Below are positions 6,326-63,458 of a stretch of 64,000 nt of DNA, piece by piece (positions within the stretch are counted from its first letter, which is position 1; every line of letters starts with the position of its first letter). Position numbers and translations under genes: made by a program. The DNA comes from an uncultured bacterium (GTDB taxonomy: Bacteria > Patescibacteriota > Minisyncoccia > UBA6257 > 2-01-FULL-56-20). The notes below the pieces were generated by a model. It searched no databases, was not told where the DNA came from, and worked only from the letters and a program-made list of their open reading frames with translations. The stretch covers positions 46,363 to 110,362 of the forward strand of contig OY970354.1 in assembly GCA_963718515.1 (NCBI GenBank), written 5' to 3'.

Positions 6326-7021
6326 TTAGCAGCTCCCCAACCCGCCGCCGGGCTCACAGTCGATCGTGCGGGCGCTCACCGTGGTCTCGAGGTTGAACGT
6401 GGTGCTTGCCACCGCGGAATCGGTGGAGCTTGGCGTAATACCCATCGTGATCGTGATGCGCGGCGTCCATTGGTCGCCTTCTACTTGCCCATATAAAAAG
6501 AAGTGGAGATATTCTAATGACACGGTGTTGCCGGTGAGCGATTGGAATGGCCCGTTCTCACAGACGCCCTCGCCGGCGGGATCCACGCTATCACATTCCG
6601 CCAAACTTCCGGCTCCCGGCCCGGCTATGGGCAGAGTATATTCCACATGATTGCCCTCGGCGTCATAGAATATGAGGCTACTGCACTCCCACCAACTCGG
6701 ATTTTCGGAGAATAGCGCGCAACCGCATCCAGGAAGAGCTCCGGGTGATGGGTTGGTCCCTCCCCCATCGGTCACATCGGTATTCCCCGGCGTATTACAA
6801 AAAAGATATCCCGTGCGGATATCGCGCGCCATCTGTTCGAGCGATAAACTCACATTGCTCTCCGCGGAAATGAGCGATGATACCTGTCGTTGGGTCCGAA
6901 GCGCGTTCGTGAATGTTCCGACGGCGATCGCGATAATGATCGTAAAAAGCGCAACGGTGATGAGCAGTTCGACGAGCGTGAACCCTTTTCTATAATTTTT
7001 TTGATTATGGGTGCCAGTCAT
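6326..7021 (-). CDS. minor pilin / pseudopilin (prepilin-type N-terminal cleavage-methylation domain)
   Basis: ORF 6326..7174 trimmed to the ATG at 7021. The N-terminus is MTGTHNQKNYRKGFTLVELLITVALFTIIIAIAVGTF, which carries the G/FTLxE motif. Confidence 0.75.
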   Translation of the reverse strand: MTGTHNQKNYRKGFTLVELLITVALFTIIIAIAVGTFTNALRTQRQVSSLISAESNVSLSLEQMARDIRTGYLFCNTPGNTDVTDGGGTNPSPGALPGCGCALFSENPSWWECSSLIFYDAEGNHVEYTLPIAGPGAGSLAECDSVDPAGEGVCENGPFQSLTGNTVSLEYLHFFLYGQVEGDQWTPRITITMGITPSSTDSAVASTTFNLETTVSARTIDCEPGGGLGSC

Positions 7022-12104: not shown

Positions 12105-13823
12105 TCACGCCTCCTCTGTTTCTCTAATAATTTCTTCTATGGAGACGATGCCTTTGAGCGCTTTTACGATACCGTCCTGGCGAAGGGTTATCATTCCCTG
12201 TTTTTTTGCCTGCTCAGTGATCTTTTGCGTGGTGACGCCAGTGTTGATACTATTTTCCACTTCTTTGGTCACAAGAAACGCTTCATATATCCCGGTTCTT
12301 CCTAATACGCCACGCCCCTTACATGTGGCACATCCTTGCGAATGATAGATCTGATACGGCGCAGTGAACTCCGCTTTGACGTCCGGAGAAAGATCTTCCA
12401 GAGCGGTTGCTGATCACTTTCTGTACCTCCGGCGACGCCGCTTCCGCAGATTTACAATCTGGACACAGGACGCCGACAAGACGCTGGGCGATCACCAGGT
12501 TAAGCGAGACAGGAAGGAGAAATGGCTCTACCTTAAGATCGATAAGACGTGGGATGACGCCGGCGGCGTTGTTCGTGTGGAGCGTGGAAAGCACGACGTG
12601 CCCCGTGAGCGCCGCCTGCACCGCAAGCCCGGCGGTCTCGCCGTCGCGGATCTCGCCGACCATGATCACGTCCGGATCCTGCCGCAATATCTGGCGCAAT
12701 CCCGACGCGAAGTCGTAGCCGATCTCCGGCCGCACTTGGGATTGGTTGATGCCTGAAACAAAATATTCCACCGGGTCTTCAAGGCTCACGATGTTCACGT
12801 CTTCCGTATTGAGCGTCTGGAGGAATGCGTACAGCGTTGTCGTTTTTCCGGAACCGGTGGGGCCGGTGATGAGCACCATGCCGAACGGCTTTGCAAGGCC
12901 TTTCTTGATGGTCTCGCGTGTGCGGTCGAGCAGGTCAACTTATCAAAACTTTTTAAACCGGTCGAAGGATCGAGCACGCGGATGACGATCTTCTCGCCGA
13001 GCGGCGTAGGGAATGTGGCGACACGAAAATCGATGTCACGGTCGAATAATTTTGCGCGGAAGCGGCCGTCCTGCGGCACGCGGTTCTCGTCGATTTTAAG
13101 GCTCGCGACCACTTTTATGCGCGAAGCGATCGGTTGCGCAAGCTCCGCAGGAAGGGATGCCACTTGATGCAGATCGCCGTCAATGCGCAAGCGGATGCGC
13201 AATGATTTTTGCTGGGGCTCAATGTGCACATCGGATGCTTTATTGAGCACCGCCTCTTTGAATGTATCAGCGACGATCTTGATGATCGGCGCATCCTCGC
13301 TCGCGCCTCCCTCGAGCTCGATCGCCTGCTGGCCACCCGTGCCTTCTTTTATATTAAGCGACTGCACCGCCTGCTCGATCTGCGCGCGGAACGGCGAATA
13401 TTTTCTGAGCACTGCCTGGAGGTCATTATATGAAATGAGATAGACGCCGAGATTGATGTGATTCTGCCGTGCGATGAACTTCATCGCTTCCTGCGCCTTC
13501 TCGTCATCCGGATGAAACATGCCGATCACGAGCAGATTATCCTGCAAGCTGATGGGGATCGCCTGATAAATGCGCGCGGTCTCTTCCGGCACGATCCCCA
13601 TCAACTTGGCATCGATCGTCTCGGGATCTATTTTTTTATAGGGGACCTTGAGCAGTTCGCTCTTAAGCTCCGCCATTTTTTCATCAGGAACGATGCGTTC
13701 GCGCCCGATGATGTCTTCGGCGGATTCGTTGTTCACGACCGCATCGCGCTTGAGCCGTGCCACGATCACATCGGTGATCAATCCCCGGCTTCGCAGTTGT
13801 TGGAGAAGTTCATCGCTCGTCAT
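12105..13823 (-). pseudogene. pilB: type IV pilus assembly ATPase PilB (GspE family), frame-disrupted
   Basis: Fragments are 12795..13823 and 12319..12879, plus a third frame that carries ALEDLSPDVKAEFTAPYQIYHSQGCATCKGRGVLGRTGIYEAF to a TGA at 12107-12105. The frame changes lie near 12940 and 12405. Walker A is GPTGSGKTT. Confidence 0.8.
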
Positions 13824-13846: not shown

Positions 13847-13911
13847 AAAAAGAGGCGGTCATTATTACCTCCCCGCAGATGATAGTTCGGTAATGATGAC
13901 CGCCTCTTTTT
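13847..13911. terminator. long bidirectional hairpin, loop family A
   Basis: 23-bp stem AAAAAGAGGCGGTCATTATTACC / GGTAATGATGACCGCCTCTTTTT with one G-T pair. The 19-nt loop is TCCCCGCAGATGATAGTTC (13870-13888). An A-run precedes it and a T-run follows. Confidence 0.7.
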
Positions 13912-20239: not shown

Positions 20240-20480
20240 ATGTAGCGCGAACGAACAACAGCACACACGCAATGTGCTTTTGAGGGAAGCCGCCGAGCCG
20301 CGAAGGCGGCGAGGCAAGAGGTGGCCGTTCAGCAGGACGGAACGCCGTGCCCGAGAAAACACATTGCGTGTGTGCTGTGCGGATGAGCGGGTAAGGGGAG
20401 TCGGACCCCTGTTATCTGATTGGCAACCAGATGTAATACCGTTATACGATACCCGCGATGTGCGCCCTGCGCACCATAAA
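20240..20480 (+). ncRNA. candidate structured RNA, class unknown
   Basis: An 18-19-bp perfect long-range helix joins 20259-20276 to 20360-20377. It encloses the hairpin GCC-GA-GCCGC-GAAG-GCGGC-GA-GGC (20292-20315, with tandem G-A pairs) and the helix GGTG..CGCC, whose G-T pair only works on the plus strand. No credible ORF is present. The 3' boundary is uncertain. Confidence 0.4.
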
Positions 20481-24854: not shown

Positions 24855-24890
24855 TGGATGCTGGACCAGGTCTACTGTGTATAAACTAAC

Positions 24891-24953
24891 AAAAGAAACC
24901 GGCGTGTTCGCCGAACTATCATCTGCCGGGAGGCGAACACGCCGCTTTCTTTT
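24891..24953 (-). terminator. long hairpin terminator, loop family A, 6 nt downstream of tRNA-Arg(GCG)
   Basis: The stem is 22 bp with one mismatch. In minus sense the 19-nt loop reads TCCCGGCAGATGATAGTTC, which matches the loop at 13870-13888 at 18 of 19 positions. Confidence 0.7.
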
Positions 24954-24959
24954 GTTTTG

Positions 24960-42094: not shown

Positions 42095-42120
42095 ATAACA
42101 CTCATTTTACCATATAAAAC

Positions 42121-42181
42121 AAAAAGCCCTCTCCTTTGGCCGAATTATTCTTATCACGAGGCCAAAGGAGAGGGCTTTTTG
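42121..42181 (-). terminator. long hairpin terminator, loop family B, directly after pnp
   Basis: The 21-bp perfect stem is AAAAAGCCCTCTCCTTTGGCC / GGCCAAAGGAGAGGGCTTTTT. The 18-nt loop is GAATTATTCTTATCACGA (42142-42159). Confidence 0.7.
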
Positions 42182-42183
42182 TT

Positions 42184-44333
42184 TTATACCTCCATCTGCT
42201 TCAGCGACAAGCCGATTTTCCCGTTCTCTGCTTTGATGATCTTTGCGCGGACGCGGTCGCCGAGATGCACGACGTTTTCCACCTGCTTCACAAATCCCTG
42301 CTTGAGCTCCGAGACGTGGATCATGCCGTCGTTGCCGCCGCCGAGATCGACGATCGCGCCGAACTCGAGGATCTTCACGATCGGCCCTTCAACGATCTCG
42401 CCCACTTTGAATTCTTTGGTAAGACCCAAAATCTCCGCGACCGCGGCTTCGACTTTCGCAAGGTCAACGCCGGAGACATACACTCCGCCGTCTTCTTCTA
42501 TATCAATGCCAGCGAGTGAATATTTTGCGATAAGGCCATTGATCATTTTGCCGCCAGGGCCGATAACGGTGCCGATCTTCGCCGGATCGATCTTGAACTG
42601 GCGGATCTTCGGCACGAACTGCGAGATCGCATCGCGATGTTTTGGTAATGTCGCCTTGATCGTTTTCAAAATATGGATGCGCGCGGCTGCTTTGCCTGTT
42701 CAAACGCTTCTTCCAATATCTCCATAGTGAGTCCGTCCACTTTGACATCCATCTGCATGCCGGTCACGCCATCGTTCGTTCCCGCAACTTTGAGATCCAT
42801 ATCGCCATGATGGTCTTCGGGGCCTTGGATGTCGGTCAGCACTTTGTAATTATTCACATCGGCCATACCGTCCGCATTGAACGCCATCATGAGTCCCATC
42901 GCGATGCCCGCGGCCGGCTTCTTGAGCGGCACGCCGGCGTCCATGAGCGAGAGCGACGGACGCGCACACTGTCGCCATGCGAGGACGAACCGTTGGATGA
43001 CATGATTTCCGAAACAACACGGATCGTGTACGGGAATTCTTCCTTGCTCGGGATCAATCGCTCAAGCGATTTGCGCGCAAGATTGCCATGGCCGATCTCG
43101 CGGCGCCCGGGCCGCGGAATGAACCGACTTCGCCAACCGAGAACGGCGGGAAGTTGTAGTGCAACATAAAACGCCGCTTGCCGGTGGTCTCCATCGTCTC
43201 GATCATCTGCTCGGCTCCGGGCGCCGCGAGCGTCGTTATCGCGAGCGCCTGCGTATTGCCGCGCACAAAAAGCGCCGAGCCGTGCGTGCGCGAGAACAAT
43301 CCCACTTCGCCATCAAGCGCGCGAACTTCGTCAAGCTTGCGGCCATCGGGACGCTGTTCCTTTTCTAAAACATTCTTATGGACAAGGTCATTCACCATCT
43401 CGTCGTAGAAAAATTCCACCGCCTTCCAATTGATACTTGTCTTTCGTGGCGCCGAACTTTTCTTTGATGTGCAGAATGAGCTCGTGATGGAGCGCGCCGA
43501 CCGCGGTCGTGTGTTCCACTTTTGTCGGCTTATAGATCGCCGCCTCGAGCTTGTCCGCCAGGAACGCGCGCACTTCCGCCTGAATGTCGGCATCGGGCTC
43601 TGCGAGCGCAACCTCCGTCTTTGGCTTACCGATCTCCTTCCGGATGTTCTCCTGGAACGCGATCAGCTTGTTGATCTCGCCCTGCGCGAGCGTGAAGCCC
43701 GCGACGACGTCTTTCTCTTGCGCATCCAAGCCGCCAAGCTCGATCATGTTGATGCGATCCTTGGAGCCGGAAACGAACGCATCGAATATCGGCAGGTTCG
43801 GTTCGGCGACGGCGCTGTTATCCGGATTGATGATAAATTGTTTGTCCGCAGTTTTTTGCGCGACGCGCACACCCGCCACCGGGCCATTCCATGGGATGTC
43901 GGAGATAAAGAGCGCGGTCGAAACGCCGAGCAGTCCGACGAATTCCGGATCGTTCTGCTCATCGATCTGCAATACCGTCACGACCACCTGTATCTCGCGG
44001 CGCATTTTGTCGTTGAAGAGCGGGCGGATGGTGCGGTCGACCAAGTCGGCCGGCGAGGATCGCCTCTTCGGACGAGCGGCCTTCGCGGCGCACATAGCGG
44101 CTGCCCAAAATTTTTCCTGCGGCATAGAACTTTTCTTCATAATCCACTTTGAGCGGCAGGTAATCGATGTCGCTATCCTTACGCGCCATCACCGCCGTCG
44201 CGAGTACCACTGTCTCGCCATACTTTGCGATCACTGCCGCATTCGCCTGCTCGGCCAACGCCGAAATCTCTATCGTCAACGTCTTTCCTGCGATCTCAAC
44301 CGAAAATGCTTTTTTTGCAACATATATTTTGAT
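42184..44333 (-). pseudogene. pnp: polynucleotide phosphorylase, multiply frame-disrupted
   Basis: The homology runs through fragments 43959..44279, 43388..44140, 43054..43611, 42666..42944 and 42184..42669 (KH and S1 domains at the end). The likely ATG at 44333 is out of frame across an A7 run. At least five frame changes. Confidence 0.85.
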
Positions 44334-44472: not shown

Positions 44473-45160
44473 TTAATGACTGTCCGACTGCGGCCTCTTG
44501 CTTCTCCCCACAAACCGCGGCTTCATGATCGCGCGCGGGACGGTCTCAATATTTACGAACTCGTCCGCGGCTTCCACGATCTTTGATGATGCGCTCCGTC
44601 TGAATGCGGCGACCTCGACCACTCGCCCGCCTCCCCATTTTACGTAATTGACCAACGGAATAAAATCGCCGTCGCCCGTCACCAAAATGATCACATCGAG
44701 GAACGGCATCATGCGGATGACGTCCACCGTCAGGCCAACATCCCAATCGCCTTTCTTCATGCCGCCGGCGTAGATCTGCAAGTCTTTCATGCGCAATTCA
44801 AGTCCGGCTTTTTCGAGAGCTTCAAAGAAGCTTGCTTCAGAAGATGCGCCGCCGCTCGAATCGCCATTGCCGCTACCACTACCATTCCCATTTGCCGACG
44901 CCGGCGCGAGCGAAACTGCCGCCGCCTGATCCTTTTCCGCCATGCGCGCGTGCGCGCCACGCGCCTGCTGCGGCTCCACGCCTTCACTCCGCACCACGTA
45001 CGCCATGGCGCGGATCAGCTGGCGGCCGCCGACAAGGTGCTTTATAAGTTCCGCATAATTGACGCGGCCCTGATATAGATTTTTTGCTGAGTGATACAGA
45101 TTCGACACATCAACAAAAATCCCAACACGCTGGTTGGAATAATTTGGTTCCTTGCTTCAT
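44473..45160 (-). pseudogene. NYN-domain (LabA-like) nuclease family protein, probable frame change near 45135
   Basis: ORF 44473..45108 carries the DWDVGLTVD and VTGDGDF motifs. The first strand, NQRVGIFVDVSNLYH, is only open upstream in the same frame without a start codon. An ATG at 45160 lies in another frame. Confidence 0.6.
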
Positions 45161-45779: not shown

Positions 45780-46726
45780 ATGGCAGAAAAAGTGACGGCA
45801 AAAAAAACTGTTCCAAAGACGGAGATCGAGCGGCTCCTCCAAGATTATTTGAATTATCTCGAGATCGAAAAAAATCGGTCGCCGAAGACGAGCGAGAACT
45901 ATAAGCACTATCTCGGCGAATTCTTGAAATTTGCAAAAATATCCCGGCCTGACGAAATCACGGACAGCGTGGTGCGCGAGTTCCGTTTAGCGCTCGCGCG
46001 GCGCGAAGGCCTTAAGCGCATCACGCAGGGATACTACGTGATCGCCTTGCGTAATTTTTTGAAGTATTTAGCGCGGCGCGATATCAAGGCGCTCTCGGCG
46101 GAAAAGATCGAGCTCCCCAAAGTGCCCGGACGCCAGATCGACACGCTTGAGTATGGTGACCTTGAGCGCCTACTCGCCGCTCCAAAGGGCGATTCACTCC
46201 GCGACCTGCGCGACAAAGCAATCCTCGAAATGTTTTTCTCGACCGGCCTGCGTCTCGCCGAGCTCTGCGCACTCCCCCGTGGGATCGACCTCAAGCGCGG
46301 TGAAATGTCCGTGCGTGGCAAGGGCGACAAACTGCGCGTCGTATTCATCTCCGACTCCGCGCGTGAGGCGGTGAAGCGCTATCTTGGGCGCGCGCGGCAA
46401 AGGGCGGTGGCGATGCCATAGAGGAAAAGTTGTTCGTCAGCCTCGACCGGCGCGGCAACGTGATCGGCCCCATCACCCCGCGCGCCGTCCAGCGCCTCGT
46501 CGCCGCGCGTGCCGTCCAAGCCGGCATCCCCAAGCATATCCATGCGCATCTGCTCCGCCACAGCTTCGCCACCGATCTATTGGTGAACGGTGCCGACCTG
46601 CGCTCCGTGCAAGAGCTCCTCGGCCACGCAAATATTTCAACAACGCAGGTCTACACTCACCTCACGAACAAGCAGTTGCGCGAAACACACAAGGCGTTCC
46701 ACGGAGTGAGGAGAGTAGAAAAATAA
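45780..46726 (+). pseudogene. xerC: tyrosine recombinase XerC/XerD family, one frame change near 46400-46425
   Basis: The N-terminal SAM-like and core domains lie in ORF 45750..46421 (ATG at 45780 preferred). The catalytic C-terminus ([12 protein letters not shown]...[15 protein letters not shown]) lies in ORF 46430..46726. Confidence 0.8.
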
Positions 46727-46730
46727 AACG

Positions 46731-46790
46731 CATAGCTATTGAGCGAGTGGACGTTCCTACGTCGGAGCGAAATAGCTATGGGTTTTTATT
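46731..46790 (+). terminator. terminator after the xer gene
   Basis: 10-bp stem CATAGCTATT/AATAGCTATG with a 30-nt structured loop, followed by GGTTTTTATTTT. Confidence 0.5.
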
Positions 46791-46927
46791 TTGCAGCGGT
46801 GCAGGAGATGGGACGAAGTTGGAACTATCGTCGCCCTAAGTTATATATAGGATTTTAGCAGGAATTTTTTATCAGGGCTACTCGCGATTAGGATTGCGTA
46901 GTTTCCGCGAAGGATTATACTTTTCGT

Positions 46928-47668
46928 ATGTTCACGCCAAAAACCAAGAGGATCGACGAGCTGGCAAAGAAATTCCCCGACCGGATTGCCGAACTGGAAG
47001 GCATTTTCAATCAGAAAACGAATGTCTATATCGACTATGCCAACATCAGGCCTTGGGCGAATAAATTAGGATGGCACATTGAACCACGACGATTGAAGCA
47101 ATTTTTGGATTCTTTTGATACCGTTCATGCAGTTAATTTTTATAACGGCACATTGACGGGCGATTCTGATTCCGAAGTTTTTATGGCTGAGATAAGGCGG
47201 TATGGCTTCAATGTCCATACGAAGCCGGTCAAGAAGATGAAGCTCTCTATCGACGTTTCAAGTATCCCGTCCAATTCACCGGATATTCTAAAGGATTTTA
47301 TTCGTAAGCCCTTACTCCAGAAACTCAAGATTGAAACAACCGAATTTTTGAATGGCCAACTGAAAGACCTGAACAGCCAAGGGGTTTTATTCATCGAAGA
47401 CCTCAAGTGTAATTTTGACGTGGAAATCGGCAGAGATATGCTGCTTGATGATAAAAATAGGGTAACCAGCTTTGTGCTTTGGAGTGGCGACAGCGATTTC
47501 GCCGATCCAGTTCAGCAATTATTGGGCGATGGCAAAAGAGTCGTTTTATTCGCGACGGCCCGCCGCGTTTCTTCGGAACTTAACGCGCTCACCCACAAAG
47601 GACTATTCATTTTCGATATTCAAAAGATCAGAGATTTTATCTGCTGGAAAAAAGAAATAGCCCCATAA
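46928..47668 (+). CDS. NYN-domain (LabA-like) nuclease family protein
   Basis: 246 aa. Motifs are VYIDYANIRPWA, NFDVEIGRDML and LWSGDSDFADPV. The promoter TTGCGT-N16-TATACT ends 6 nt before the ATG. Confidence 0.7.
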   Translation: MFTPKTKRIDELAKKFPDRIAELEGIFNQKTNVYIDYANIRPWANKLGWHIEPRRLKQFLDSFDTVHAVNFYNGTLTGDSDSEVFMAEIRRYGFNVHTKPVKKMKLSIDVSSIPSNSPDILKDFIRKPLLQKLKIETTEFLNGQLKDLNSQGVLFIEDLKCNFDVEIGRDMLLDDKNRVTSFVLWSGDSDFADPVQQLLGDGKRVVLFATARRVSSELNALTHKGLFIFDIQKIRDFICWKKEIAP

Positions 47669-61621: not shown

Positions 61622-62717
61622 ATGCCACAAATCGAAGACCCGAAAGCAACTGCCGTCGCGCAGGCGCTCAAAACGGAGATTTCCACCACCGACTGGCCCA
61701 AGGAAGGCAGCGTGGTAGAGGTCACCCTGCTTAAGAAACTCCACCGCAAAGCCTACTTTGATATGGGCCGCTTTGGCACCGGTATCGTGTTCGGCGCAGA
61801 GATCGCGAACGCGCGCGAAGCCATCCGCAATCTCAAGCCGGGCGACAAGCTCCAGGCAAAGATCGTCACGCTCGACGGCGAGGAAGGAGACATCGAGCTC
61901 TCGCTCTCCGAAGCCGGCAAGCAGAAGCTCTGGGCAGCATCGCAAAGGAACTCACCGAGTCGGGCGAGGTCATCAAGGCAAAGATCGTCGGCGCGAACGC
62001 GGGCGGACTCATGACCGTTGTCGCGGAAGAATTGAAGGCATTCCTTCCCGTCTCTCAGCTTTCCCTCGAGCACTATCCCAAAGTTCCGGACGGTGATCGC
62101 ATCAAGATCGCAGAGGAATTGAAAAAGTTTGTGGGCCAGGAATTGAACGTTAAGATCATCGACGTCAATCCGCGCACCAATAAAGTGATCGTCTCGGAGC
62201 GCGAAGTACTTTCCGCGAACGTGAAAGAATTGCTCAACGCGTACGCCGTCGGCCAGGTCGTCGACTGCATGGTGTCCGGCACCGCAGACTTCGGCGTCTT
62301 CGTCCGCTTTACCGACAACCCGCAGATCGAGGGCATGATCCACATCTCCGAGCTCGATTACAAATTGATCGACAATCCGAAAGAACTCGTAAAGGTGAAC
62401 GATCCGCTCAAGGCAAAAATTATTGATATAAAAGAGGGCCGCGTCTTCCTTTCGCTCAAAGCGCTCAAAGAGGATCCGTGGGTCAAAGCCGGCGACACAT
62501 TCAAGCCGGGCGAGACCGTGCAAGGCAAGGTCTACAAGTTCAATCCGTTCGGCGCAGTCGTTGCGCTCGACGGCGACCTCCAGGGCATGGTGCACATCTC
62601 CGAGTTCGGCGGCCAGGATGAAATGAAAACGCACTCACCGTTGGCCAGAGTTATCCGTTCGTAGTGGACACGGTCAAACAGGAGGAAAAGCGCATCACGC
62701 TGAAGACGAAGAAATAA
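61622..62717 (+). pseudogene. rpsA: ribosomal protein S1-like (multiple S1 domains), two frame changes
   Basis: The fragments are 61622..62014 and 62011..62664, plus a third frame ending VGQSYPFVVDTVKQEEKRITLKTKK with TAA at 62715-62717. Four S1-type OB motifs are present (for example GxVxxxxxFGAFVxL-like segments). Confidence 0.8.
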
Positions 62718-62718
62718 C

Positions 62719-62773
62719 AAAAAGCCCTCCTTCACCTCCAGACAGATGACCGTTCGGTGAAGGAGGGCTTTTT
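62719..62773 (+). terminator. long hairpin terminator, loop family A, after the S1 gene
   Basis: The 18-bp perfect stem is AAAAAGCCCTCCTTCACC / GGTGAAGGAGGGCTTTTT. The 19-nt loop is TCCAGACAGATGACCGTTC (62737-62755). Confidence 0.7.
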
Positions 62774-62825
62774 GTTTCTTTACTTCACATGGAAAATCCG
62801 ATATTCTAAAACCTGAATTAAGGAC

Positions 62826-62896
62826 GCCGCGATAGCTCAATGGTAGAGCACTCGCCTGAAGAGCGAGCTAAGTGAGTTCGATTCTCTCTCGCGGCA
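62826..62896 (+). tRNA. tRNA-Phe (anticodon GAA)
   Basis: Acceptor GCCGCGA/TCGCGGC, D-arm GCTC-AATGGTA-GAGC, anticodon loop CTGAAGA and T-loop TTCGATT. Confidence 0.85.
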
Positions 62897-62914
62897 CAAC
62901 ATCAGCGTCTTAAT

Positions 62915-62984
62915 AAAAAAGAGGGACAGATGTTTTCAGCAAATTATTCTTATCACGAGTTGAAAACATCTGCCCCTCTTTTTT
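62915..62984. terminator. long bidirectional hairpin, loop family B, between convergent tRNA-Phe and tRNA-Arg
   Basis: The ~26-bp stem AAAAAAGAGGGACAGATGTTTTCAGC / GTTGAAAACATCTGCCCCTCTTTTTT has one mismatch and one G-T pair. The 18-nt loop is AAATTATTCTTATCACGA (62941-62958). Confidence 0.7.
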
Positions 62985-62990
62985 GCCTTG

Positions 62991-63062
62991 TGCCCTCGGT
63001 AGGAATCGAACCTACATAACCAGCTTAGAAGTCTGGAGTTCTATCCATTGAACTACAAGGGC
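62991..63062 (-). tRNA. tRNA-Arg (anticodon TCT)
   Basis: Acceptor GCCCTTG/CGAGGGC, D-arm GTTC/GAAC, anticodon loop CTTCTAA (one A-G mismatch at the stem end) and T-arm GTAGG-TTCGATT-CCTAC. Confidence 0.8.
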
Positions 63063-63128
63063 AGTTGAACGTCGCCGTTCGTCGCATTGATTCTAAACTA
63101 AAAATAGGATAGTTTAAAGGGGCTTACG

Positions 63129-63199: not shown

Positions 63200-63284
63200 C
63201 AGAGATATATTTCAATATTATCCACAAGGAACATTTGCCCGATGTTCTATACTAAAGACAGGCACCACCCATCACCTATCCCTT

Positions 63285-63458
63285 AAGGAGGACTCGCCAT
63301 TTGAGAAATCTAGTTTTGGTAATTCGACCGCAGACGTTGTTTGCACCCACCATCGACAAAACTAGTCTTGCCTGAAGGAGGTGATCCACGTTCCGGGAAG
63401 GCAAAACCCCTTCCATGGCCCCGTGTGTTCAAAAGGACGCACGGGGTTTCGCTTTTTT
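63285..63458 (+). other. leader-like unit: SD, 24-codon sORF, 13-nt perfect anti-16S-3'-end sequence, hairpin, terminator
   Basis: AAGGAGG (63285-63291) is followed 9 nt later by TTG at 63301. The sORF MRNLVLVIRPQTLFAPTIDKTSLA ends with TGA at 63373-63375. AAGGAGGTGATCC lies at 63375-63387. The hairpin GGAAGG/CCTTCC follows, then the terminator CCCCGTG..CACGGGG plus a T-run (63419-63458). Confidence 0.35.

Follow-up and report, generated by a model that had tools for sequence, protein, structure and literature searches.

Gene-end hairpins with conserved, strand-specific loops and freely varying stems in Minisyncoccia

The two kinds of described element that come closest to the hairpins discussed here both lie just past bacterial genes, and each has defining features of its own. 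Intrinsic terminators are stable, G+C-rich hairpins with a T-tract, placed at gene 3' ends and closed by loops of 3-8 nt; the bidirectional ones stand right after genes or tRNAs, with an A-tract before and a T-tract after, can be used by convergent genes, and share no sequence with one another. Repetitive extragenic palindromic (REP) sequences and bacterial interspersed mosaic elements (BIMEs), with the REPINs (REP doublets forming hairpins) mobilised by REP-associated tyrosine transposases (RAYTs), are short, multi-copy extragenic palindromes just past genes that come in subfamilies, differ between relatives by presence or absence, and are potential terminators or stabilisers of messenger RNA; they conserve their stem and a 5' GTAG and leave the loop free. 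Here, we describe hairpins of two families, A and B, in 64,000 nt of contig OY970354.1 from an uncultured member of the Minisyncoccia (this whole 64-kb stretch is what we call the window), where one hairpin of each family brackets a tRNA-Phe gene between a gene for an S1-domain protein and a convergent tRNA-Arg gene. These hairpins have everything just listed for bidirectional terminators up to the loop, which is 18-22 nt long (a consensus terminator scan that allows loops of 3-8 nt calls neither of the two), keeps its sequence from locus to locus and from genome to genome, and is strand-specific. They also have what we listed for REPs and BIMEs, except that conservation falls on the loop and a 6-bp clamp, with the stem left free, that orientation follows transcription, and that no RAYT is known for them. 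Defining features of both closest kinds are lacking, for terminators in the length of the loop and for REPs in the conservation of loop rather than stem.

Other comparisons can be made on single points. In function, the hairpins may be likened to the histone messenger RNA 3' stem-loop with its binding protein SLBP and to plastid 3' untranslated region (3'UTR) stem-loops, which are RNA 3'-end hairpins with a loop read by a dedicated protein; those are eukaryotic or organellar, have short and partly conserved stems, and share no homology with ours. In form, a variable stem with an invariant, protein-recognised loop is also found in the origin hairpins of geminiviruses, circoviruses and rolling-circle plasmids (the nick sites of HUH Rep proteins), but those occur once per replicon, are read as DNA and lie beside the rep gene, whereas here dozens of chromosomal copies follow housekeeping genes, are oriented by transcription and are absent from viral contigs. 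Integron attC sites, which have conserved R''/R' core sites at their outer ends and lie in arrays of gene cassettes, differ in that conservation here is central, not terminal, and in that our hairpins stand beside core genes (S1, pnp, recA, tRNAs).

At the site itself, the features seen in the first-pass annotation, which was made from the letters and their open reading frames (ORFs), are all present with small corrections of coordinates (Table 1). The S1-domain gene, whose product resembles ribosomal protein S1, ends as proposed at 62717: alignment with orthologues puts its stop at TAA 62715-62717, and two related loci fetched for comparison (such loci carry L-numbers throughout; here L166 and L108) terminate at the same KTKK*. 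In the window its frame is broken, leaving two ORFs, 61622-62014 and 62011-62664, and a tail. Hairpin A, originally drawn at 62719-62773, is slightly larger and overlaps the S1 TAA; its 21-bp arms pair perfectly around a 19-nt loop, TCCAGACAGATGACCGTTC, and as RNA it folds at -41 kcal/mol (z=-8.2). Hairpin B has 24-bp arms that are 96% complementary and a 22-nt loop that holds AATTATTCTTATCACGA at 62942-62958, reads UCGUGAUAAGAAUAAUUU on the minus strand, and gives a fold of -35 kcal/mol. The two loop classes do occur together in one region of the genome, as had been argued, with A at 62737 and B at 62942, some 200 nt apart. The conserved genes pnp and pilB are, like S1, split over two or more frames or seemingly truncated in the window, which suggests long-read assembly indel errors rather than pseudogenes, a reading that intact orthologues in L056 and L058 support.

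Might loops of this length be alike by chance? The window holds three A and two B copies, about one per 13 kb, all intergenic and every one with a different stem. The A pattern, TCCNNNCAGATGANNGTTC, has three exact matches, at 13870 (+), 24913 (-) and 62737 (+), where 0.47 would be expected with as many as two mismatches and where none of 100 shuffles gives three; the B 17-mer has two, at 42143 and 62942, against 0.23 expected with up to three mismatches. These five matches are the loops of the window's five longest large-loop hairpins. Ordinary terminators in the window have loops of 4-5 nt, and in 0.9 Mb of related DNA the loop lengths of terminator-like hairpins are bimodal, with peaks at 3-6 nt and 18-19 nt. 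The first-pass annotation had offered, as the way in which its own proposal might fall, independent terminators with chance loop likeness; measured against background, the loops lie far above it.

Beyond the window, scanning the B loop over one genome per species gave 55 loci, of which about 17 are real, all in three Patescibacteria metagenome-assembled genomes (MAGs); each of these is part of a hairpin of 18-36 bp whose stem is unique to it, whereas the remaining matches have no stem and are chance matches. For family A, metagenomes were scanned with the loop and the pairs that close it, which yielded 84 distinct hairpins in 107 loci, most of these loci being from peat and soil. The JGI samples Ga0182030, Ga0181537, Ga0265338 and Ga0302320, from peat and bog, are sources of such contigs. 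All of these outside copies (84 A and about 17 B, 16 of the latter complete) are in MAGs of Minisyncoccia or Paceibacteria type. Minisyncoccia is a class within the phylum Minisyncoccota, and the RecA protein of the window has metagenomic nearest relatives (92-93% identity), its named relatives being Paceibacterota and Minisyncoccia. Around S1, tRNA-Phe and tRNA-Arg, CAYQFA01, a MAG that carries the label Saccharibacteria, is syntenic with the window, which places it in the same lineage; JBEKBG01 and CAVVHF01 are further MAGs of this clade. Viral contigs gave no A matches and four B matches, none in a hairpin and thus due to chance.

The copies share a layout: an A-tract, about eight variable paired bases, a 6-bp clamp (YTCGCC/GGCGAR), a loop of 18-19 nt, the mirror arm and a T-tract. 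When the 84 A copies are aligned on the loop, the clamp is conserved from -1 to -6 and gives way to variable sequence at -7 to -14 (0.05-0.33 bits per position, with no GTAG); beyond it lie an A-tract from -15 and a T-tract from +15, with 60-80% A at -15 to -20 and 60-80% T at +15 to +20. The 19-nt A loop is invariant or nearly so, with TCCAGGCAGATGACCGTTC in 53 of the 84. Family B follows the same plan around an 18-nt loop, with clamps that vary from TTTCAGC to TTCGCC, and the TTCGCC/GGCGAA clamp is found in both families; clamp and loop together make a conserved apical module of about 31 nt. In the sense of transcription, the loop reads UCCAGGCAGAUGACCGUUC in A, UCGUGAUAAGAAUAAUUC in B and UCCUGAAAGAUUAAUGUC in a third family, E, to which we return below. 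Stems run to 20-36 bp, and module hairpins fold at -35 to -51 kcal/mol (z -6 to -11). The stem is free in sequence and not in pairing, and the covariation is overwhelming: across 70 A copies, 98.1% of the cells are standard pairs and 15 of the 16 pairs change on both sides, a result that none of 500 shuffles reaches and that falls to about 43% pairing when the partners are slid.

Position and orientation are equally regular. Most copies begin 0-13 nt past a tRNA 3' end or close to a stop codon (-12 to about +10 nt). The tRNA-adjacent B copies lie 0-11 nt past tRNAs for Ser, Leu, Val, Lys, Tyr and Arg, and outside the window their loop reads as the sense form of B given above relative to the immediately upstream tRNA in 11 of 11 cases; therefore, hairpin B at our site is that of tRNA-Arg(tct). 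Its assignment to that convergent tRNA, 5-6 nt away, had been made at first sight and is borne out by the sense of the loop. It had also been read as the hairpin following tRNA-Phe, and here the adjacency stands and the ownership does not: no module hairpin belongs to tRNA-Phe, which shares this one from the antisense side. A copies within 13 nt of a tRNA are in sense with it in 13 of 14 cases, and for hairpins at which just one flanking ORF terminates, the count is about 33 sense to 11 antisense. What sets the direction? The loops at 62737 (+, sense to S1) and at 62942 (sense on the minus strand, to tRNA-Arg) point in opposite directions 200 nt apart, and because each is sense to its own gene, orientation is set by transcription and a replication-strand cause is ruled out.

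Table 1. Positions of the site, of the hairpin copies and of neighbouring features, in the window and in related loci (L-numbers)
Feature	Locus	Positions	Strand	Context or basis
S1-domain (ribosomal protein S1-like) gene	window	61622-62717	+	ORFs, Pfam S1 domains, orthologue alignment
Family A hairpin	window	62716-62776	+	sense to S1; arms 62716-62736, 62756-62776; loop 62737-62755
tRNA-Phe(gaa)	window	62826-62897	+	ARAGORN and Rfam; CCA not encoded
Family B hairpin	window	62915-62984	-	sense to tRNA-Arg(tct); arms 62915-62938, 62961-62984
tRNA-Arg(tct)	window	62990-63062	-	ARAGORN and Rfam; 3' end 5-6 nt from hairpin B
Family A hairpin	window	24888-24956	-	2 nt 3' of tRNA-Arg(gcg); tRNA-sense loop TCCCGGCAGATGATAGTTC
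Family A hairpin	window	13847-13911	+	between two minus-strand pilus-operon genes; the window's one clearly antisense copy
Family B hairpin	window	42113-42188	-	29-bp perfect stem; overlaps pnp (PNPase) stop; sense to pnp
pnp, split or seemingly truncated	window	42184-42944		
pilB, split or seemingly truncated	window	12795-13823		
Family E loop	L086	12002-12081		
Family E loop	L107	1121-1199		
Family E loop	L119	81-150		
Family E loop	L056	3213-3296		
Family E loops	L072	9202-9268, 9323-9371		
Family E loop	L077	12817-12889		
D insert	window	20258-20378	-	minus-strand sense, 6 nt past tRNA-Gly(gcc)
D insert	L017	4493-4632		
D inserts	L056	11742-11862, 8969-9105		
D insert	L121	~6590-6700		
Family C hairpin	window	46719-46792		between XerC/D-like integrase gene and NYN-domain gene
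Family C hairpin	L053	102-190		
Family C hairpin	L137	3315-3401		
Family C hairpin	L081	3087-3183		
Family C hairpin	L124	6659-6736		
NYN-domain (putative RNase) gene	window	44473-45108	-	
NYN-domain (putative RNase) gene	window	46928-47668	+	
NYN-domain (putative RNase) gene	L056	14139-14804		
NYN-domain (putative RNase) genes	L058	14711-15442, 15979-16491		
Second AAGGAGGA	window	63283-63292		tRNA-Pro/tRNA-Val spacer
AAGGAGGTGATCC	window	63375-63387		tRNA-Pro/tRNA-Val spacer
Plain terminator hairpin	window	63414-63451		after the spacer motifs

Are A and B kin? The first-pass annotation had wondered whether CAGATG, the core of the A loop, which recurs in the left arm of hairpin B, was a coincidence or a trace of common ancestry. 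The motif is there, at 62927-62932, and in sense orientation that arm reads GGCAGATG...TTC, an echo of the A loop that may be chance; it is not a conserved feature, for related B stems have TAGATG, TAGATA, CAAATG or GAGGTA at that place. Common ancestry nonetheless stands in substance, on the homology of the loops in sense orientation and the shared clamp and not on CAGATG. Family E, whose loops are GACATTAATCTTTCAGGA as found and whose clamp is YTCGCC like that of A, supplies the bridge: read in transcript sense, loop similarity is significant between B and E (p=0.0002), between A and E (p=0.002), and between A2 and B (p=0.012), and the same comparison in the opposite orientation gives none. 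To judge from these alignments, A and B are homologous, two versions of a single module bridged by E, and this holds in sense orientation only. The families also replace each other in place. The hairpin that follows tRNA-Leu(tag) is B in L011 and A in L142, and a second orthologous site has B in L112 and A in L117 and L146, with orientation unchanged at both sites; upstream of pilB, the window and L103 have A (antisense in both), and L051 has B (sense). There is in addition a short version of E, of 9 nt (GCAGATTAA), two copies of which lie in opposite orientations in L072, about 250-400 nt past a sarcin-ricin-loop probe match that marks the 23S rRNA gene.

Comparison of relatives shows how these sites change. 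The hairpin downstream of S1 is common to the window, L166 and L108, with compensatory changes in its stem and a loop that is nearly unchanged. Over 39 orthologous pairs with flanks of 74-89% identity, the loops are 91%, the clamps 80% and the variable stems 45% identical, where the loop figures are inflated by ascertainment, since the loci came from an exact pattern search. Downstream of pnp, three relatives have three different hairpins, with other modules in L056/L057 and in L058; one orthologous site has A, an insert that we call D, or nothing, depending on the relative; and simple presence and absence separate L075/L098 from L135 and L072 from L105. At the two empty sites (a weak sample, n=2), the whole hairpin is missing and no direct repeats flank it where it is present. 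Because the same stem and loop can follow unrelated genes (L111 against L145/L123), the repeated unit is the whole hairpin. Insertion of a module into an older plain terminator was considered and rejected: we found no site with the same stem with and without a module, and families swapped at one site differ in their stems.

Some individual loci add detail. At the empty site in L135 (~2200-2220), the distal left arm, ATAATAACACAGCCCA, is present and the inner hairpin and right arm are missing (n=1), and at the filled sites (L075 1292-1356 and L098 9332-9412), the right arm holds a 14-nt inverted copy of that flank, a pattern that hints at either an asymmetric deletion or arms built by copying the flank. 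L096 holds a degenerate tRNA-like gene at 6814-6886, to which ARAGORN gives a 4-base anticodon, and in L082 (1608-1668) an antisense A hairpin replaces the middle of this sequence, with the two acceptor-stem halves left in place. In one MAG, contigs stop at B hairpins (L004, L041).

Catalogues and the literature offered no ready identity. With Rfam 15, only tRNAs pass the gathering thresholds in the whole window; at E<=10 over 62650-63100, and at E<=0.1 in four related loci, the matches are tRNAs and sub-threshold generic hairpin shapes, those to plastid psbA 3'UTR models reflecting hairpin shape only. Searches of the literature by topic and by loop strings found no description of the A or B hairpins. 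A hammerhead-like arrangement, CAGAUGA...GAAA, was rejected (core U4 is A, stem II has only 2 bp, there is an extra C, and Rfam gives no match), as was a mimic of the anti-Shine-Dalgarno sequence (GCCUCC), a motif that lies mostly within the stem and is absent from B. An 11-nt stretch of the A loop, AGGCAGAUGAC, matches Escherichia coli 4.5S RNA, which we take to be coincidence, and the fetched loci contain no signal recognition particle (SRP) RNA with which to compare the A loop.

What, then, might these hairpins do? The best reading of the sequences is that they are repeated bidirectional intrinsic terminators whose apical loop is a strand-specific recognition site on RNA. Since an A-tract and a T-tract frame each hairpin after genes, a bidirectional terminator or 3'-end hairpin is predicted, and since the loop is the only asymmetric part, is conserved, and follows the direction of the upstream gene, it is probably read on RNA. 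Placed just past a tRNA or a stop codon, the hairpin would terminate transcripts both ways, and a trans-acting factor, probably a protein, would then recognise the sequence of the conserved loop on the transcript. Such a reader could mark these very stable hairpins so that the 3' end is processed or turned over, as in the removal of tRNA trailers, the trimming of which hairpins of 20-36 bp would otherwise block; alternatively, it could protect the 3' end. That a protein recognises the loop and directs processing, decay or protection of the 3' end is a proposition to which we would give even odds, a probability of about 0.5. As for the protein, a speculative candidate is the NYN-domain nuclease encoded beside pnp. 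The window has the gene order NYN-pnp, whereas L056 and L058 have rpsO-NYN-pnp; both the window and L058 carry another NYN gene close by.

Several points weigh against this reading. A loop of 18-19 nt falls outside the canonical range for a terminator, and a simple scan calls neither hairpin at the site. The constraint on the stem is symmetric and has no RNA-specific signature (among the 2.3% of mismatches, the sense strand has 14 G-U against 16 A-C), which fits a bidirectional terminator or a DNA palindrome equally. True antisense copies exist, one of them apparently retained in relatives (at 13847 in the window, and in L103). A stem and loop that recur after unrelated genes look like a spreading repeat, the presence and absence of hairpins at orthologous sites is more than function alone accounts for, and the ascertainment noted above flatters the conservation of the loop. 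Finally, both termination and the reading of the loop on RNA are things that we infer, and the reader is still only hypothetical, with no candidate established.

Some of these points are what one would expect of a selfish mobile element resembling a REP or a miniature inverted-repeat transposable element (MITE), in which the loop and clamp would be read as folded single-stranded DNA by a transposase encoded elsewhere and which would survive only where it lands after genes; the loop would be conserved for the mobility enzyme and not for the host, and copies might double as terminators. A multi-copy family with subfamilies, identical hairpins between unrelated flanking genes, filled and empty orthologous sites (L075/L098 vs L135; L072 vs L105), different module families at the same site among relatives, a clamp like 6-bp terminal inverted repeats, arms of near-perfect Watson-Crick pairing with G-U no commoner than A-C, and a MAG whose contigs break at B hairpins as they would at repeats (L004, L041) all suit this explanation. 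An orientation that tracks the adjacent gene even for opposite-strand neighbours does not, for it is not predicted by HUH/Y1 enzymes that target the replication fork. The stems, too, are unlike along their length from copy to copy, which is true of neither REPs nor MITEs, and the two empty sites show no target-site duplication (a weak comparison at n=2); loops are kept at orthologous sites where the flanks have diverged by some 20%, which selfish decay would not give; viral contigs hold no real copies; and no transposase turned up, although no systematic search for one was made. We consider a selfish element, the main rival to our reading, possible but unlikely.

Less probable again, and in our judgment improbable, is base pairing in trans, by which released trailers and 3'UTR hairpins would expose the loop to a complementary RNA and act as sponges or regulators, much as tRNA 3' external transcribed spacers do in E. 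coli, with an antisense-oriented copy (in a kissing complex) or some other target as the partner. The loops are indeed long, single-stranded and conserved in sequence, many copies are tRNA trailers, and the presence of both orientations in one genome supplies perfectly complementary loops (13870 vs 24913, and 62737). Yet no complementary target above chance turned up in the DNA available, part of a 23S region included, matches of 9-10 nt being about what chance gives, and the exchange of loop families at one site is hard to square with specific targets.

A third possibility, that the loops are DNA uptake sequences or uptake signal sequences (DUS/USS) parked in terminators, has behind it the presence of type IV pilus genes (PilB-like) and the example of Neisseria and Haemophilus, where uptake sequences often lie within terminators. 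We hold it to be very unlikely: with five copies in 64 kb, the density of about 1 per 13 kb is low, copies are all intergenic and never seen inside genes, several loop families coexist, and orientation is tied to the upstream gene and its transcription, which uptake does not need. As for ordinary, independent terminators with loops alike by chance or base composition, the positions and the A- and T-tracts fit, and the reading is nevertheless refuted for practical purposes, because identity over an exact 17-19 nt of loop in the window (0.2-0.5 expected) goes beyond background and the loop is retained, on differing stems, in about 100 more copies from other genomes, plain terminators in the same DNA having loops of 3-6 nt.

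A, B and E are not the only modules found at the tips of such hairpins. The D insert, a G+C-rich, structured segment of 60-100 nt, forms the tip of terminator-like hairpins that stand where A and B hairpins do and are likewise in sense orientation (Table 1 gives some copies among others). For 14 copies, RNAalifold gives 20 pairs, 15 with compensatory changes, in two inner hairpins, one of them capped by a UUCG-like loop, with ACGGCGU and CUCCGAG conserved; it has no match in Rfam and, on this modelling, looks like an undescribed structured RNA. Family C loops (ACGTAGGAACGT or TCGCTCCGACGTAGG...ACGTCCACTCGCTC) are found in long hairpins. One can imagine the preferred reading carried further, such that these interchangeable apical modules (A, B, E, the C loops and the 60-100 nt D insert) would form a 3'-end code from which dedicated RNA-binding or RNA-cleaving factors decide the fate of tRNA precursors and messenger RNAs, the modules being copied between sites by a mechanism linked to transcription; we put this forward tentatively, as an idea that is likelier to be wrong than right.

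Near the site, the 290-nt spacer between tRNA-Pro and tRNA-Val, which has no convincing ORF, contains the two motifs given in Table 1, the longer of which is a 13-nt perfect complement of the canonical 3' end of 16S rRNA.

What would such a family mean for the bacteria that carry it? The Patescibacteria, or candidate phyla radiation (CPR), have tiny genomes, and how their transcripts are ended, processed and degraded is barely known. On the evidence of sequence, the A and B hairpins would be a large and previously undescribed family in these bacteria. Standard scans for terminators and Rfam families miss them, as they do the D insert, and MAG assemblies break at them. They reverse the pattern usual in extragenic repeats, where stems are conserved and loops are free, and in doing so they raise the question of how hairpins with different stems come to be copied. 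The family predicts a sequence-specific reader of RNA 3' ends, and with about 100 sampled hairpins, their covariation, a strand-specific loop and a link to tRNA 3' ends, it offers a testable handle on the transcript biology of the CPR.

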